Notes: generated by a model not told the origin, from the letters alone. Positions 2,172 to 4,627 are shown, counted from the stretch's first letter. The stretch is 4,627 bases of DNA from a virus (IMGVR_UViG_3300029095_000166); one strand, 5' to 3'. Numbers and translations: made by a program.

Positions 2172-2200
2172 GGGTGCCAGAAATGGCGCCTTTTTTATTT
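2172..2200 (+). terminator. Putative intrinsic (rho-independent) terminator between J and the side tail fiber gene
   Basis: GGTGCC (2173-2178) can pair with GGCGCC (2185-2190) as a 6-bp GC-rich stem with one G.U pair and a 6-nt loop (AGAAAT), followed immediately by TTTTTTATTT (2191-2200). It lies 19 nt after the J stop codon. Judged by eye, no folding energy computed. Confidence 0.45.
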
Positions 2201-2202
2201 GT

Positions 2203-2206
2203 GGAG
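2203..2206 (+). promoter_or_regulatory. Shine-Dalgarno-like GGAG for the side tail fiber gene
   Basis: GGAG lies 5 nt upstream of ATG 2212. Confidence 0.5.
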
Positions 2207-2211
2207 TGAAT

Positions 2212-4233
2212 ATGGCAGTACAGATTTCAGGCGTGCTGAAAGACGGTGCAGGAAAACCGATACAGAACTGCACCATTCAGCTCAAAGCAAAACGTAACAG
2301 CACCACGGTTGTGGTGAACACGGTGGCCTCAGAAAATCCGGATGAAGCCGGACGTTACAGCATGGATGTCGAGTATGGCCAGTACAGCGTTATCCTGCTG
2401 GTTGAAGGTTTTCCGCCTTCACATGCCGGGACCATCACCGTGTATGAGGATTCTAAGCCGGGGACATTGAATGATTTTCTGGGCGCTGCAACAGAAGATG
2501 ATGTTCGTCCGGAGGCACTGTATCGTTTTGAAAAGATGGTGGAAGAGGCGGCACGCAACGCTGAAGCCGCCTCTCAGAGCGCAGCGGCAGCAAAGAAATC
2601 CGAAACAGCAGCGGCATCGTCCAGGAACGCGGCGAAAACATCAGAGACGAATGCAGGTAACAGCGCGAAAGCGGCAGCTTCTTCAAAAACAGCCGCACAA
2701 AATGCAGCAACAGCGGCAGAACATTCAGAGACAAATGCCCGTGCGTCAGAGGAAGCCTCCGCAGACAGTGAAGAGGCTTCCCGCCGTAATGCAGAGTCAG
2801 CCGCTGAAAATGCCGGAATCGCCACCACAAAAGCGCGGGAGGCCGCAGCAGACGCAACAAAGGCCGGGCAGAAAAAGGATGAGGCTCTGTCGGCAGCGAC
2901 ACGAGCAGAAAAGGCGGCAGACCGCGCAGAAGCCGCAGCGGAAGTGACTGCAGAGCCCTATGCGAATATAGTGCCGCCGCTGCCTGATGTATGGATACCG
3001 TTTAACGATACACTGGATATGATTACGGGGTTTTCGCCATCATATAAAAAGATTGTTATTGGTGACGATGAAATAACAATGCCAGGCGACAAGATTGTTA
3101 AGTTTAAACGTGCTTCAACAGCAACGTATATTAATAAGTCCGGCCAACTCAAGCTTGCTGAAGTTGATGAACCGCGATTTGAGCGCGATGGCTTATTGAT
3201 TGAAGGACAGAGGACAAATTATCTGAGGAACTCAAATAAACCAGACTCATGGACTGTTCATTCCGCACTGAATAAAACATTTGGCACTGATAAACAGGGG
3301 TTCAATTATGCCACGGTGACACCCACGGAAAGTATAGTGGGAACAACAGGTGGCTATACTGTGCATGGTGTGGTTGCAGCAGACAGATTCCCGCTGGCAA
3401 GTGGTGAATGTTTCACTTTTTCGTGCCGGGTTAAAGGCGCTAAAGCACGATGCAGGTTAAGAGTTTCAGTTATTATTGGTGGAACAGATACCTTCTCTGC
3501 TGACTCTTATCTTGATCTGGATACCCGGATCGCAACAGTAAGCGGTAATACATCCCTTATAACAGCCAAAGCTGAACAACAGGGCGAGTGGACCTACTAT
3601 GAGGCCACTTATACAGCTAATACGGACATTGATACCGTTAACTGTGCTTTTTATATGACAAATAAAATAAGTAATGAGCCATTCTATGATGACTCAACAT
3701 TAACCATGACGACGCCGCAAATTGAACTGGGCAATACGGCATCGTCATTTATTGTAACTACAATGCCAACAACACGCGCAAGTGATGTGGTTACTATCCC
3801 CTCGGAGAATAACCTGTCAACACGGCCTTTTACGGTATTGTGCGAAGTAAGGAGGAACTGGAGTACACCGCCCAATGTTGCGCCAAGGATATTTGATGTT
3901 GGAGGGCACAGTATTGATGATAATTATTTATCGCTGGGGTTTGTTTCAACAGGAAAGATAAGCGCCAACGTAGGAATGGTTCAGCCACAAATAGCCGCAG
4001 ATGGAGAAAGGTTCATTGTGGGGGTGAGAGCTAAATCCGATTTATCAGTAAATGCAATATGCAATGGTAATTATACAACAAACCTTAATGGTAAAATATT
4101 TGGCATTACAGCAACATCGTACCGGTTTGGTGGGCAGACCGCAGCAGGAACGCGTCATTTGTTTGGACACATCAGAAATTTCAGAGTCTGGTTTAAAGAA
4201 TTAAATGACAGGCAAATAAAGGAGGCAGTATGA
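2212..4233 (+). CDS. stf: Side tail fiber protein, mosaic: lambda Stf-like N-terminal domain and Ala/Ser/Thr/Glu-rich shaft fused to a distinct C-terminal lectin-like receptor-binding module (674 aa)
   Basis: The N-terminus MAVQISGVLKDGAGKPIQNCTIQLKAKRNSTTVVVNTVASENPDEAGRYSMDVEYGQYSVILLVEGFPPSHAGTITVYEDSKPGTLNDFL closely matches my recollection of lambda Stf (orf401). I chose ATG 2212, preceded by GGAG, over the GTG at 2206 reported in the ORF track because Stf homologues begin MAV.ISG. A shaft rich in SETNA-like quasi-repeats follows (about 2540-2950). The C-terminal part (from about 2950) has no resemblance to the lambda Stf / T4 gp37-type distal region and ends with LFGHIRNFRVWFKELNDRQIKEAV, which resembles the terminal beta-strand motif of LamG / concanavalin-A-like jelly-roll domains. 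Stop TGA at 4231-4233. Confidence 0.88.
   Translation: MAVQISGVLKDGAGKPIQNCTIQLKAKRNSTTVVVNTVASENPDEAGRYSMDVEYGQYSVILLVEGFPPSHAGTITVYEDSKPGTLNDFLGAATEDDVRPEALYRFEKMVEEAARNAEAASQSAAAAKKSETAAASSRNAAKTSETNAGNSAKAAASSKTAAQNAATAAEHSETNARASEEASADSEEASRRNAESAAENAGIATTKAREAAADATKAGQKKDEALSAATRAEKAADRAEAAAEVTAEPYANIVPPLPDVWIPFNDTLDMITGFSPSYKKIVIGDDEITMPGDKIVKFKRASTATYINKSGQLKLAEVDEPRFERDGLLIEGQRTNYLRNSNKPDSWTVHSALNKTFGTDKQGFNYATVTPTESIVGTTGGYTVHGVVAADRFPLASGECFTFSCRVKGAKARCRLRVSVIIGGTDTFSADSYLDLDTRIATVSGNTSLITAKAEQQGEWTYYEATYTANTDIDTVNCAFYMTNKISNEPFYDDSTLTMTTPQIELGNTASSFIVTTMPTTRASDVVTIPSENNLSTRPFTVLCEVRRNWSTPPNVAPRIFDVGGHSIDDNYLSLGFVSTGKISANVGMVQPQIAADGERFIVGVRAKSDLSVNAICNGNYTTNLNGKIFGITATSYRFGGQTAAGTRHLFGHIRNFRVWFKELNDRQIKEAV
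2560..2950 (+). repeat. Low-complexity quasi-repetitive coding region (Ala/Ser/Thr/Glu-rich fiber shaft)
   Basis: Protein-level degenerate repeats (KKSETAAASSRNAAKTSETNAGNSAKAAASSKTAAQNAATAAEHSETNARASEEAS...) and DNA-level near-repeats such as tcagagacgaatgc (about 2640) and tcagagacaaatgc (about 2725). The composition bias leaves alternative frames on both strands open (spurious ORFs 2453..2902-, 2471..2947+, 2574..2828-). Confidence 0.6.
4220..4225 (+). promoter_or_regulatory. Shine-Dalgarno AGGAGG for the coupled small ORF
   Basis: AGGAGG lies 4 nt upstream of ATG 4230, inside the 3' end of the fiber gene. Confidence 0.55.
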
Positions 4234-4508
4234 AAGATTTAACTTTGAAATTTCCTGGTAACAGAGAGTTTAAATCCTTCCTGTCATCTCTTGACTGGGA
4301 GGAAGATGAAGACCTCCAGAATAAACTGTTAGTTGATGAAATTGGTTTCACCTACACAGAAACAGGGGTAACAGAAGAGGGAGAACCTGTCTGTATCCGG
4401 AATGACGGTTATTTTGTCAACATTCGCATCCTTGATGACGCGTTTGATGTTTCTGTATTCTCTGATTATGTTGTGGAGCTGGAAACACCGCTTCGTGAAT
4501 GGAGCTGA
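4230..4508 (+). CDS. Hypothetical small acidic protein (92 aa), translationally coupled to the side tail fiber gene; function unknown, candidate fiber accessory or chaperone
   Basis: The ATG at 4230-4232 overlaps the fiber stop TGA 4231-4233 (ATGA arrangement) and has a strong upstream AGGAGG. The ORF is 92 codons, AT-rich like the fiber C-terminal module, and strongly acidic (about 22 Asp+Glu against about 8 Lys+Arg, counted by eye). It does not match my recollection of Tfa family chaperones, which are about 190 aa. Confidence 0.65.
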   Translation: MKDLTLKFPGNREFKSFLSSLDWEEDEDLQNKLLVDEIGFTYTETGVTEEGEPVCIRNDGYFVNIRILDDAFDVSVFSDYVVELETPLREWS

Positions 4509-4509
4509 A

Positions 4510-4515
4510 AGGAGG
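4510..4515 (+). promoter_or_regulatory. Shine-Dalgarno AGGAGG for the downstream membrane-protein ORF
   Basis: AGGAGG lies 5 nt upstream of ATG 4521. Confidence 0.55.
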
Positions 4516-4520
4516 AAATA

Positions 4521-4627
4521 ATGGATATAAGCCCCTTACTTCATGCACTTTGTGCTGTGGCTGCGCAGGTACTGGTTGGTCTTTTTACCGGGAACTGGGC
4601 TTACGGAGCGATAGCCGGTTGTACGTT
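4521..4627 (+). CDS. Hypothetical hydrophobic (probably inner-membrane) protein, 3'-partial (first 35 codons only)
   Basis: ATG at 4521 with a strong AGGAGG upstream, starting 12 nt after the stop of the small acidic ORF. The translation MDISPLLHALCAVAAQVLVGLFTGNWAYGAIAGCT is dominated by hydrophobic and small residues, consistent with a transmembrane helix. The ORF runs off the window, so product identity is unknown. Confidence 0.5.
   Translation, partial: MDISPLLHALCAVAAQVLVGLFTGNWAYGAIAGCT

Follow-up and report, generated by a model that had tools for sequence, protein, structure and literature searches.

What holds a side tail fibre gene, a small acidic gene and a small membrane-protein gene together at the end of a phage tail operon? 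The three are tightly packed on the same strand at the distal end of a 4,627-nt stretch of DNA from the virus IMGVR_UViG_3300029095_000166 (hereafter the window), and a sequence-only reading of it had tentatively proposed a single module that joins receptor recognition to superinfection exclusion or receptor masking. Our sequence comparisons indicate that the trio instead splits in two, into a swappable fibre tip with its own helper and a conserved membrane protein of predicted role.

The packing itself is as that reading described it. The fibre gene (2212-4233, + strand) ends in a TGA (4231-4233) overlapping the ATG of the acidic gene ORF92 (4230-4232), which gives an ATGA junction and translational coupling. 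ORF92 (4230-4508, +) is followed by a 12-nt spacer, AAGGAGGAAATA (4509-4520, +), with the Shine-Dalgarno sequence AGGAGG at 4510-4515, and the third gene, ORF97, starts at the ATG at 4521; its first 35 codons (4521-4627, +) are present before the window ends. The only terminator-like site on the + strand is a hairpin that separates J from the side-fibre gene (2172-2191, +; an 8-bp stem with 5 G-C pairs and a T-run), at the same site that carries a terminator annotation in phage 21, and none was found on that strand within 2192-4627. The window scan gave no + strand promoter-like site downstream of 3309, and the six promoter-like matches in the window were not above chance (3.8 +/- 2.1 in shuffles). 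An Rfam scan of the window found no match. The minus-strand ORFs within 4193-4548 are short (43-52 aa). The region lies at the far end of a lambdoid tail operon and comprises two joined units that behave differently across phages.

The fibre is of the Stf type. Its ORF opens at a GTG at 2206 (2206-4233, 675 aa), and the annotated ATG of the same gene in phage PhiR47_2 corresponds to window position 2212. Residues 3-133 match PF08400, the N-terminal domain of lambda Stf-like prophage tail fibres (230.1 bits, cutoff 26.6; E 9e-69), and the protein matches phrog_1419 (E 1.6e-294). The locus thus shares with lambda Stf/Tfa this virion-attachment domain, the place after J and the overall plan of a conserved N-terminal part, an exchangeable C-terminal receptor-binding part and then an accessory gene. 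However, its C-terminal 410 aa bear no relation to those of lambda Stf, and the accessory gene here is ORF92, with tfa present as a 3' remnant downstream. The C-terminal module has a spike-fibre β-sandwich and, after it, a probable LamG-like domain. Residues 331-525 (3196-3780, +) pass the NCBIfam model NF048003, the phage head spike fibre domain (66.8 bits, cutoff 36), which is the one domain that this tail side fibre has in common with the RcGTA head spike fibre. The final domain (residues ~533-675; 3802-4230, +) was assigned as LamG/ConA-like from position and homology: it matches phrog_5939, as does its homologue at the Chelativorans locus L113, and the L113 region that matches the end of the window fibre hits PF13385 (Laminin_G_3, E 9.6e-10), although the window fibre itself has no Pfam LamG match at E<=1. 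The BLASTP alignment of the fibre stops at the boundary of this domain. Pfam gave a weak CBM_4_9 match in the fibre, and a PDB sequence search with the C-module found nothing. As a candidate function, the module most likely binds a surface polysaccharide, for example O-antigen.

The same type of fibre module is found in the lateral fibre loci of virulent Drexlerviridae, Nonagvirus and Tequintavirus (BASEL phage PeterMerian, tonn, L6jm; E 1e-127 to 1e-159), together with a homologue of ORF92 (50-54% identity) that is coupled to the fibre gene as in the window; these loci differ in their fibre N-terminus, in the lifestyle of the phage and in having no ORF97. The lateral fibres of these virulent coliphages are thought to bind O-antigen (PMC8594841). 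The third gene of the PeterMerian locus is 55% identical to a second small fibre gene of other E. coli prophages, and in some E. coli prophages a second small S74 fibre lies between ORF92 and ORF97. The branched, two-gene lateral fibre LtfA/LtfB of T5-like phage DT57C resembles this prophage class (PMC4728585), but both of its proteins end in S74 autochaperone domains and the passages covered mention no ORF92-like gene; LtfA/LtfB are S74-type fibres and were rejected as an example of the present fibre type.

The acidic, coupled character that the sequence-only reading gave to ORF92 stands (92 aa, pI 4.05, 22 D/E against 8 K/R). It matches phrog_1361 (E 6.2e-40, residues 1-91 of 92), a family annotated 'unknown function', and its PHROG matches are confined to families of this kind; it is a predicted cytosolic α/β protein (structure model pLDDT 89.8). 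Searches of Pfam and NCBIfam gave no match, which in Pfam includes the tail fibre assembly families Caudo_TAP (PF02413) and Phage_tail_APC (PF16778); PADLOC-DB, a collection of defence and exclusion proteins, had no match for any of the three proteins. A PDB sequence search with the ORF92 profile found nothing, and Foldseek against viral models returned uncharacterised phage proteins only. ORF92 may act in a chaperone-like manner, although it does not belong to the Tfa family.

Its distribution points to the virion. Homologues are found in 146 phage records, directly 3' of the fibre gene in every one examined, and ORF92 follows the fibre C-module in all fibre-bearing phages and prophages examined, virulent T1-like and T5-like ones included. 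The sole exception is Chelativorans, where the LamG-type protein has no ORF92-like neighbour. Since ORF92 comes after the same fibre even in virulent phages, among them Drexlerviridae and Tequintavirus, a role in building the virion is indicated, and we predict that it is probably a fibre-specific assembly factor replacing Tfa. The identity of ORF92 (31-99%) tracks that of the fibre module; such co-variation with the fibre end could stem from physical linkage alone. In Comamonas and Pantoea the gene after the LamG-type module (phrog_5939) encodes a protein that matches phrog_18574 with its N-domain, as ORF92 does; the relation of ORF92 to the Comamonas proteins is drawn from these common matches and gene position, and hhalign of ORF92 against the N-domain of the 188-aa Comamonas proteins gave a probability of 4.6%.

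The three genes move together, as the sequence-only reading expected. They occur as a trio in 79 of 80 related IMG/VR loci and at about 98% identity in 12 phage records; wild lambda-like phages and the Rac prophage of E. coli B (REL606/BL21, ECB_RS07130-07140) have it at 98% identity. The genes are also found together on the SSU5-like phage-plasmid PhiR41_1, as are their distant homologues in prophages of Comamonas and Pantoea. The trio was matched with at least 80% query coverage in 517 E. coli genomes, and the cassette region including the first 107 nt of ORF97 in 1809 of 5426 complete E. coli genomes (about one third). After ORF97 lies a truncated 3' remnant of tfa, and therefore the whole block displaced the 3' end of stf and the 5' end of tfa. 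The block is itself a mosaic, with conserved anchors at 2950-3221 (+; PLPDVWIPFND...LLIEGQRTNY, 80-95% nucleotide identity across fibre types) and from ~4508 onward; the first of these begins exactly where the earlier reading had set the left edge of its cassette. Between the anchors is a variable core (3222-4121, +), the hypervariable, low-G+C (~42%) receptor-binding part of the fibre, which extends through ORF92 in some types. DNA similarity between types is limited there to a short 68% patch at 3772-3897 against one other type (L054), and the last ~37 residues of the fibre (4122-4233) are semi-conserved.

ORF97, beginning at its ribosome-binding site, is the constant right flank of every cassette type (~90% nucleotide identity), and its G+C content (~53%) is unlike that of the fibre module and ORF92 (~42%). 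Both features would suit a gene kept mainly as a DNA handle, a right-hand homology anchor for recombination of fibre cassettes that encodes a protein of little function. We consider this quite improbable, as it is at odds with the constraint on the protein: dN/dS among phage copies is 0.03-0.23 with all amino-acid changes in helix 1, identity across Gamma- and Betaproteobacteria is 57-65% with the polar residues invariant, and standalone chromosomal copies are under purifying selection. For ORF92 dN/dS is 0.26-0.33; ORF92 and ORF97 are real genes, because these ratios are low and both match PHROG families.

The whole of ORF97, 97 aa, could be read from a phage 97.5% identical to the window (L001, 6572-6865). 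It matches phrog_1443 (E 2.4e-58, residues 1-96 of 97), a family also annotated 'unknown function', and an AF2 model (pLDDT 93.8) has three helices. It is probably an inner-membrane protein, its location and topology both being predicted; no signal peptide, lipobox (the N-terminus is MDISPLLHAL) or outer-membrane features were found. The family forms 577 clusters when grouped at 90% identity and 433 when grouped at 50%. Every member is a standalone protein, ~60-150 aa long (90-120 in most), in which the polar residues are invariant. The family ranges over Alpha-, Beta- and Gammaproteobacteria, is unusually well conserved and carries no annotation. The conserved polar motifs are H8, G-R-E-H-T-Q-A-E-Y-R-W, M-P-W-W-G-G-F-D and D79. 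ORF97 has no match in Pfam or NCBIfam, Pfam is also empty for ten distant relatives, a PDB sequence search with its profile found nothing, and we found no literature naming the accessions or PHROG ids of these proteins.

Temperate phages keep ORF97 right after the last receptor-binding gene, whatever its fold. The receptor-binding genes immediately before it in lambda-like, P22-like, P2-like and SSU5-like phages are unrelated to one another, and in sipho-, myo- and podovirus prophages it comes after pectate-lyase tailspikes, J-like giants, an S74 fibre and, in one case, a Tfa-like gene. A tie to LamG-type fibres, beside which it is seen in Comamonas and Chelativorans, was rejected because the module is within 7 kb in only 9 of 50 genome loci and other receptor-binding types precede ORF97. 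Its own identity is 95-100% while that of the receptor-binding domain spans 37-99%. Intact close copies were found in temperate phages and prophages only, with some carriers, such as the Aeromonas phages, lying outside the lifestyle assignment; the virulent Drexlerviridae and Tequintavirus with the same fibre and ORF92 lack it even at E<=1, and the HC6-type phages, likewise outside the virulent/temperate assignment, have it only as a frameshifted remnant. In four Aeromonas species the orthologues form a syntenic chromosomal gene without phage genes nearby (dN/dS 0.04-0.18). The earlier reading was to be refuted if the downstream ORF proved to be an unrelated, conserved host gene, and this is partly so, since in Aeromonas it is a conserved chromosomal gene; in related prophages the three genes do co-occur. 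From its invariance, its mixed partners, its absence from virulent phages and the Aeromonas copies we therefore take ORF97 to be a fibre-independent, lysogeny-associated gene.

These observations bear directly on the single module proposed earlier, in which the membrane protein would mask or remove the receptor of the adjacent fibre and so shield lysogens or progeny, as do T5 Llp and phi80/N15 Cor. In E. coli prophages ORF97 is tightly linked to, and co-occurs with, a receptor-binding gene, and its position is like that of the exclusion genes beside the receptor-binding proteins of T1-like and T5-like phages. A mask for one receptor would, however, hardly stay nearly invariant beside so variable a receptor-binding domain, follow unrelated receptor-binding proteins, be missing from virulent phages with the same fibre and persist on Aeromonas chromosomes away from phage genes; we give this explanation little probability. 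The likeness to lom and cor does not hold either. The products of T5 llp, T1/phi80/N15 cor and lambda lom are outer-membrane lipoproteins or β-barrels, each specific to one receptor. ORF97 resembles these genes in being small, envelope-targeted and next to receptor-binding genes, but it has no sequence similarity to them, is predicted to be helical and in the inner membrane, and is the same beside many receptor-binding proteins.

Could ORF97 instead be a membrane-anchored morphogenetic helper for receptor-binding proteins generally, with ORF92 as a second, fibre-specific one? It always has the same orientation as the receptor-binding or Tfa-like gene that immediately precedes it, and the stop codon of the one often overlaps the start codon of the other (4-nt overlaps in JEP4, phiHAP-1 and the loci L087 and L113, against the 12-nt spacer in the window); in L113, L139 and phiHAP-1 it is surrounded by tail genes, and the window cassette has no conserved promoter of its own. 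Yet the folds of its partners are unrelated, and several of these fold types fold by themselves or use an intramolecular S74 chaperone. Virulent phages, moreover, make the same LamG-type fibre without ORF97, Aeromonas maintains the gene with no phage genes nearby, and in phage Gally a terminator separates it from the tailspike gene. A general helper of this kind is rather unlikely. The tail-assembly-interference (Tai) system, which involves J and needle proteins, is not this locus.

Lysis cassettes often follow tail fibre genes, and a holin, antiholin or lysis regulator could have been carried along in this way. In Comamonas prophages the ORF97 homologue has the last fibre-related gene on one side and holin-like, endolysin-like and spanin-like genes on the other, and the size and multi-helix membrane character of the protein are holin-like. 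But those prophages have their own adjacent holin-like genes, the lysis cassette of the E. coli prophage is complete and lies apart, and the lysis genes of the window phage type are elsewhere. Neither ORF97 nor the ten distant members match a Pfam holin family, the invariant polar motifs are strong and the chromosomal orthologues are under selection, and the P22-like copies are at the tailspike-int locus and not in a lysis cassette. We regard a lysis role as very unlikely.

The most likely role predicted for ORF97 is exclusion or conversion that is directed at the envelope, and not the masking of one specific receptor. Inner-membrane exclusion and conversion proteins include HK97 gp15, T4 Imm, P22 SieA, D3 Iap, the epsilon15 polymerase inhibitor and the products of the P22 gtrABC locus. 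Like ORF97, these are small membrane proteins whose genes lie within or next to the tail or tailspike genes of temperate phages, and in P22-like phages the ORF97 homologue itself occupies the conversion locus that separates tailspike from int, in one case with an O-acetylase gene as its neighbour. ORF97 differs from them in having no detected homology to them (PADLOC, Pfam), in being far more conserved and in its wider spread. Known exclusion proteins usually evolve fast; the ORF97 family, contrary to this, is very conserved. The moron-like nature that the sequence-only reading suggested, a moron being an independent transcription unit within a late operon, gains some support from the P22-type locus, from Gally, where the gene lies 3' of a terminator and an AT-rich promoter-like region, apart from the tailspike gene, and from the selected gene in Aeromonas, but the window shows neither a promoter nor a terminator for ORF97 itself.

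Based on these comparisons we can propose how the locus might work, and we hold the proposal as a whole with moderate confidence. The first unit, on these comparisons, is a host-range cassette made of the C-module of the Stf-type fibre (conserved adaptor, hypervariable CBM-like β-sandwich and LamG-like end) and ORF92. ORF92 would be active in the cytoplasm while virions are assembled, where it would either help this fibre in particular to fold or trimerise or become a stoichiometric subunit of the tip, and would stand in for Tfa, of which the 3' remnant alone survives. The second unit, ORF97, would act alone in the host envelope, without depending on the fibre; its target would be a conserved host membrane component and not the fibre's particular receptor, and the outcome would be exclusion or surface conversion. 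With no promoter of its own in the window, ORF97 may be made together with the late tail genes or by read-through. Its coupling and its position in tail clusters would equally fit a late or morphogenetic role.

This fibre type and ORF92 are common to temperate lambda-like phages and to virulent coliphages used in therapy or as models (T1-like, 9g-like, T5-like). If ORF92 is a required helper, it must accompany the fibre when phages or delivery particles are re-targeted; the Eligo papers on Stf chimeras make no mention of accessory genes. More tentatively, phrog_1443 may represent a widespread class of inner-membrane proteins of temperate phages that has gone unrecognised. Such proteins would be kept beside receptor-binding genes of any fold, would protect the lysogen or remodel its envelope via a conserved host membrane component, whichever receptor the phage uses, and would have been domesticated by some bacteria, for example Aeromonas. 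Should ORF97 prove to be a factor for exclusion or conversion that acts on a conserved target in the host, the phage susceptibility of lysogens would depend on a common determinant that has been overlooked.

The window covers the distal portion of a lambdoid tail operon. At 64-2153 it contains the 3' end of the lambda-type tail gene J, whose reading frame is broken artificially by a run of 48 N at 1227-1274 (the matching stretch in phage PhiR47_2 is 58 nt), and the apparent break into ORFs 64-1332 and 1338-2153 is therefore a masking artefact, with no real frameshift. A terminator-like hairpin (2172-2191, plus strand) lies upstream of an Stf-type side tail fibre ORF on the plus strand (2206-4233, 675 aa; the ATG annotated elsewhere is at 2212). 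The fibre stop overlaps, in ATGA, the start of an acidic 92-aa ORF (ORF92; 4230-4508, plus strand, pI 4.05), and a 12-nt spacer containing AGGAGG leads on the same strand to a 97-aa membrane-protein ORF (ORF97), which starts at 4521 and is still open where the window ends at 4627. No terminator-like site was found on the plus strand between the three genes, promoter-like matches in the window did not exceed chance, and no Rfam family matched in it. The tight packing, coupled acidic ORF and RBS-led membrane ORF described in the sequence-only reading were thus borne out by the ATGA overlap, the AGGAGG and the absent terminator; the third ORF is present as proposed, with its start to be corrected to 4521. 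That reading also raised, as speculation, the hypothesis that 2950-4627 combines receptor recognition with a linked superinfection-exclusion or receptor-masking function. The three genes are here joined physically and probably in transcription, but they do not form a single functional module: by sequence comparison ORF97 is independent of the receptor-binding fold and its specificity.

The fibre belongs to the Stf N-terminal family and has a spike-fibre domain in addition: the prophage tail fibre N-terminal domain (PF08400, E 9e-69) occupies aa 3-133, an alanine-rich stretch follows, and aa 331-525 score as a phage head spike fibre domain, above the NCBIfam cutoff. The entire C-terminal part matches tail families phrog_1419 and phrog_5939. 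No Pfam hit was obtained in aa ~533-675 of the window fibre itself; the Chelativorans phrog_5939 homologue has Pfam Laminin_G_3 at this place, and the putative LamG assignment is made only from homology and position. Sequence searches revealed no solved structure related to the fibre.

Local BLASTN against ten related loci revealed a mosaic. A left anchor (2950-3221) is conserved at 80-95% nucleotide identity, the core (3222-4121) has almost no detectable DNA similarity between fibre types apart from one 68% patch (3772-3897), and the fibre end (4122-4253) is semi-conserved. ORF92 DNA is 90% conserved within the phage 21 type and diverged in other types, and ORF97 is at about 90% in all types, with conservation beginning at about 4508. 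G+C content is ~42% over the fibre module and ORF92 and ~53% in ORF97. Across 80 IMG/VR loci, identity to the window ranges over 37-99% for the fibre C-terminal module and 31-99% for ORF92, each tracking the other, while ORF97 stays constant at 95-100%. The C-terminal receptor-binding part of J (1337-2199) is also mosaic, at 68-81% in several prophages that match the upstream part of J at ~94%; variation in J is therefore independent of that in the side fibre.

Twelve phage records (wild lambda-like isolates, 1H12, PhiR47_2) carry the 1678-bp region 2950-4627 at 98.2-98.3% identity. Among 5426 complete E. coli genomes it is matched in 1809, and in 517 of these the match covers at least 80% of the region. 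The expectation that the three genes travel together was upheld, since 79 of the 80 IMG/VR loci, which were found using ORF97, carry a homologous fibre module and an ORF92 homologue; the whole trio is also present on the 108-kb SSU5-like phage-plasmid PhiR41_1. PhiR47_2 and phage 21 have J, the side fibre gene, the 92-aa and 97-aa ORFs and a convergent sitDCBA operon, in this order. This complete sitABCD manganese/iron ABC transporter operon lies in the b region just past the window end (6957-10406 in locus L001, 6996-10445 in L002), where viable lambdoid phages carry it as host-benefit cargo. In E. coli B, whose Rac prophage has the trio, a 3' fragment of tfa and then pinR come next, and a Tfa-like C-terminal peptide can be read downstream of ORF97 in other loci too (...EEETSLLEAWKKYRVLLNRV...; 7885-7995 in L003, 6239-6433 in L054), with a pin-type invertase next in several prophages. 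The remnant marks the right junction at which the cassette replaced stf-tfa sequence, and its place behind ORF97 shows that the block from the fibre C-terminal module to ORF97 displaced the stf 3' end and the 5' part of tfa. In some E. coli strains (NZ_CP127316.1, NZ_CM128606.1; hits H27, H30) the fibre gene is split by IS2 or IS3, which would inactivate the cassette there and leave the small ORFs in place.

In the protein collection the ORF92 family looks narrow, with 45 clusters, every one from Escherichia or Shigella; tblastn found it in 146 phage records. Virulent carriers include Drexlerviridae (PeterMerian/Bas05, tonn), Nonagvirus (JenP1/2) and Tequintavirus (L6jm), and those examined have a LamG-type lateral fibre, an ORF92 homologue with a stop/start overlap and often a second fibre gene; ORF97 was absent from them even at E<=1. 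Comamonas and Pantoea prophages encode a separate 400-aa phrog_5939 protein followed by a 95-188-aa protein whose N-domain hits phrog_18574, as does ORF92; when ORF92 and the Comamonas N-domain were aligned profile to profile, hhalign gave a probability of 4.6%. Close ORF92 pairs have dN/dS of 0.26-0.33. AF2 predicts for ORF92 a small α/β fold that includes a long β-hairpin (pLDDT 89.8); this model had no PDB match and matched only uncharacterised viral models. Because ORF92 is kept in strictly lytic phages, always after this fibre type and at the former place of tfa, we infer that its role is morphogenetic and specific to this fibre, as an assembly helper or as a tip subunit. It lies outside the Tfa family but probably functions in the manner of Tfa.

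A second class, represented by many E. coli prophages, has, between the ORF92 homologue and ORF97, an extra small fibre gene that encodes 234 or 346 aa (L050 5286-5990; L054 4918-5958; L149 4292-4987). The N-terminus of its product is a coiled coil, and inspection of the sequence by eye suggests an S74-like autochaperone end; the product is 55% identical to a gene of BASEL phage PeterMerian annotated 'putative lateral tail fiber chaperone'. This arrangement suggests branched two-protein fibres.

The full ORF97 protein has three predicted helices (4-23, 26-52, 74-96; pLDDT 93.8). The family forms 577 clusters when grouped at 90% identity and has 433 representatives when grouped at 50%, all standalone proteins of ~60-150 aa, most of them 90-120. 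Invariant residues include D2, H8, Q16, C34, R40, E41, T43, Q44, E46, Y47, R48, W49, R58, M61, P62, G65, G66, F67, D68, W72, D79 and P83; distant members retain H8, the G-R-E-x-[AS]-Q-A-E motif and a D ahead of the last helix. The conserved His, Glu, Gln and Asp near the predicted membrane interface suggest a specific binding or catalytic site. For ORF97 dN/dS is 0.03-0.23, with all substitutions confined to helix 1, and by their dN/dS values both small ORFs are genuine coding genes. In some contigs (L007-L010, 6001-6441; protein P0001) ORF97 reads past its stop to give a 146-aa product, whose 49-aa C-terminal extension spans the tfa-remnant region; this cluster has 205 member sequences.

ORF97 homologues of 56-65% identity directly follow different genes: a fibre with Phage_tail_fib and Peptidase_S74 in a P2/HP1-like Leclercia prophage, a pectate-lyase tailspike in a Salmonella myovirus (between two such genes) and, after J, in a Citrobacter lambdoid, fibre or tail proteins in Pantoea and Leclercia, a tailspike-like protein with a 4-nt overlap in a metagenomic contig, giant J-like proteins in Comamonas and Pantoea, and a LamG-type protein inside the tail cluster of Chelativorans. 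The Comamonas prophage (L004, 10-5769) has a giant J-like protein, called at 2520 aa, with several CBM-like repeat units (...GWRQPKLERGTLPATRYS...), then a 72-aa ORF, the ORF97 homologue and holin-like, endolysin-like and spanin-like genes. Among isolated phages, phiHAP-1 has the homologue between a Tfa-like gene and the sheath gene, and P22-like Lederbergvirus phages have it between tailspike and integrase, where it overlaps the tailspike stop in JEP4 and neighbours an LPS O-acetylase in 611R6. A LamG-type module occurs within 7 kb in only 9 of 50 genome loci. In phage Gally, another of these P22-like phages, a terminator hairpin (9-bp stem), 190 AT-rich bases that include a promoter-like site, and a Shine-Dalgarno sequence lie ahead of the gene, which there would be a moron-like unit of its own.

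In HC6-type phages the sole trace is a frameshifted, unannotated remnant (L144 4462-4624; the same match in ZCEC08, ST1UNAM and PBM-2/3) that follows a large 859-aa gene at the structural-module end of ~48-kb and ~73-kb phages and has lost the REHTQAEY region. Four Aeromonas species carry an orthologue at one syntenic chromosomal site, between pirin and RIO1 kinase genes and with no flanking phage genes; dN/dS there is 0.04-0.18, for dS values of up to 0.6. About 1.2 kb downstream, on the opposite strand and past the RIO1 kinase gene, are two lipid A acyltransferase genes (L005 7508-9645), which may be coincidence or may hint at a link to the envelope. In two MAGs that are unrelated to each other (Burkholderiales, Pseudomonadota; L134 3-1176, L135 4845-7225) a distant homologue comes immediately after the NAD-dependent DNA ligase gene ligA, overlapping its end, in a non-phage operon context.

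Based on these comparisons, the fibre module and ORF92, common to temperate and virulent siphoviruses, behave as a host-range cassette of morphogenetic genes. The receptor it recognises is probably a glycan, O-antigen or some other, because lateral fibres of this kind have been proposed to bind O-antigen (PMC8594841) and because of the CBM/LamG-type domains. ORF97, for its part, does not depend on receptor-binding fold or specificity, its intact close copies were encountered only in temperate elements and among selected chromosomal genes, and in one phage its surroundings are moron-like. Such a pattern is consistent with a cell-autonomous function of use during lysogeny, which would be aimed at a conserved envelope component and could be an entry block or a general surface conversion; it speaks against a mask for the fibre's own receptor, a general part in RBP assembly or a role at the DNA level alone.

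Database entries for all three genes already exist, most of them labelled hypothetical proteins; in phage 21 the annotation of ORF97 is putative membrane protein. Our literature search found no papers on the ORF92 or ORF97 family. A layout of fibre, helper and membrane accessory gene is familiar, and the fibre cassette itself is ordinary. ORF97 resembles the RBP-adjacent exclusion genes llp, cor and lom, and the inner-membrane exclusion or conversion proteins HK97 gp15, Imm, SieA and Iap, in position and size only. What has not been described is an invariant membrane protein common to different receptor-binding types and morphotypes, and the distribution of its family is both unexpected and cheaply testable.
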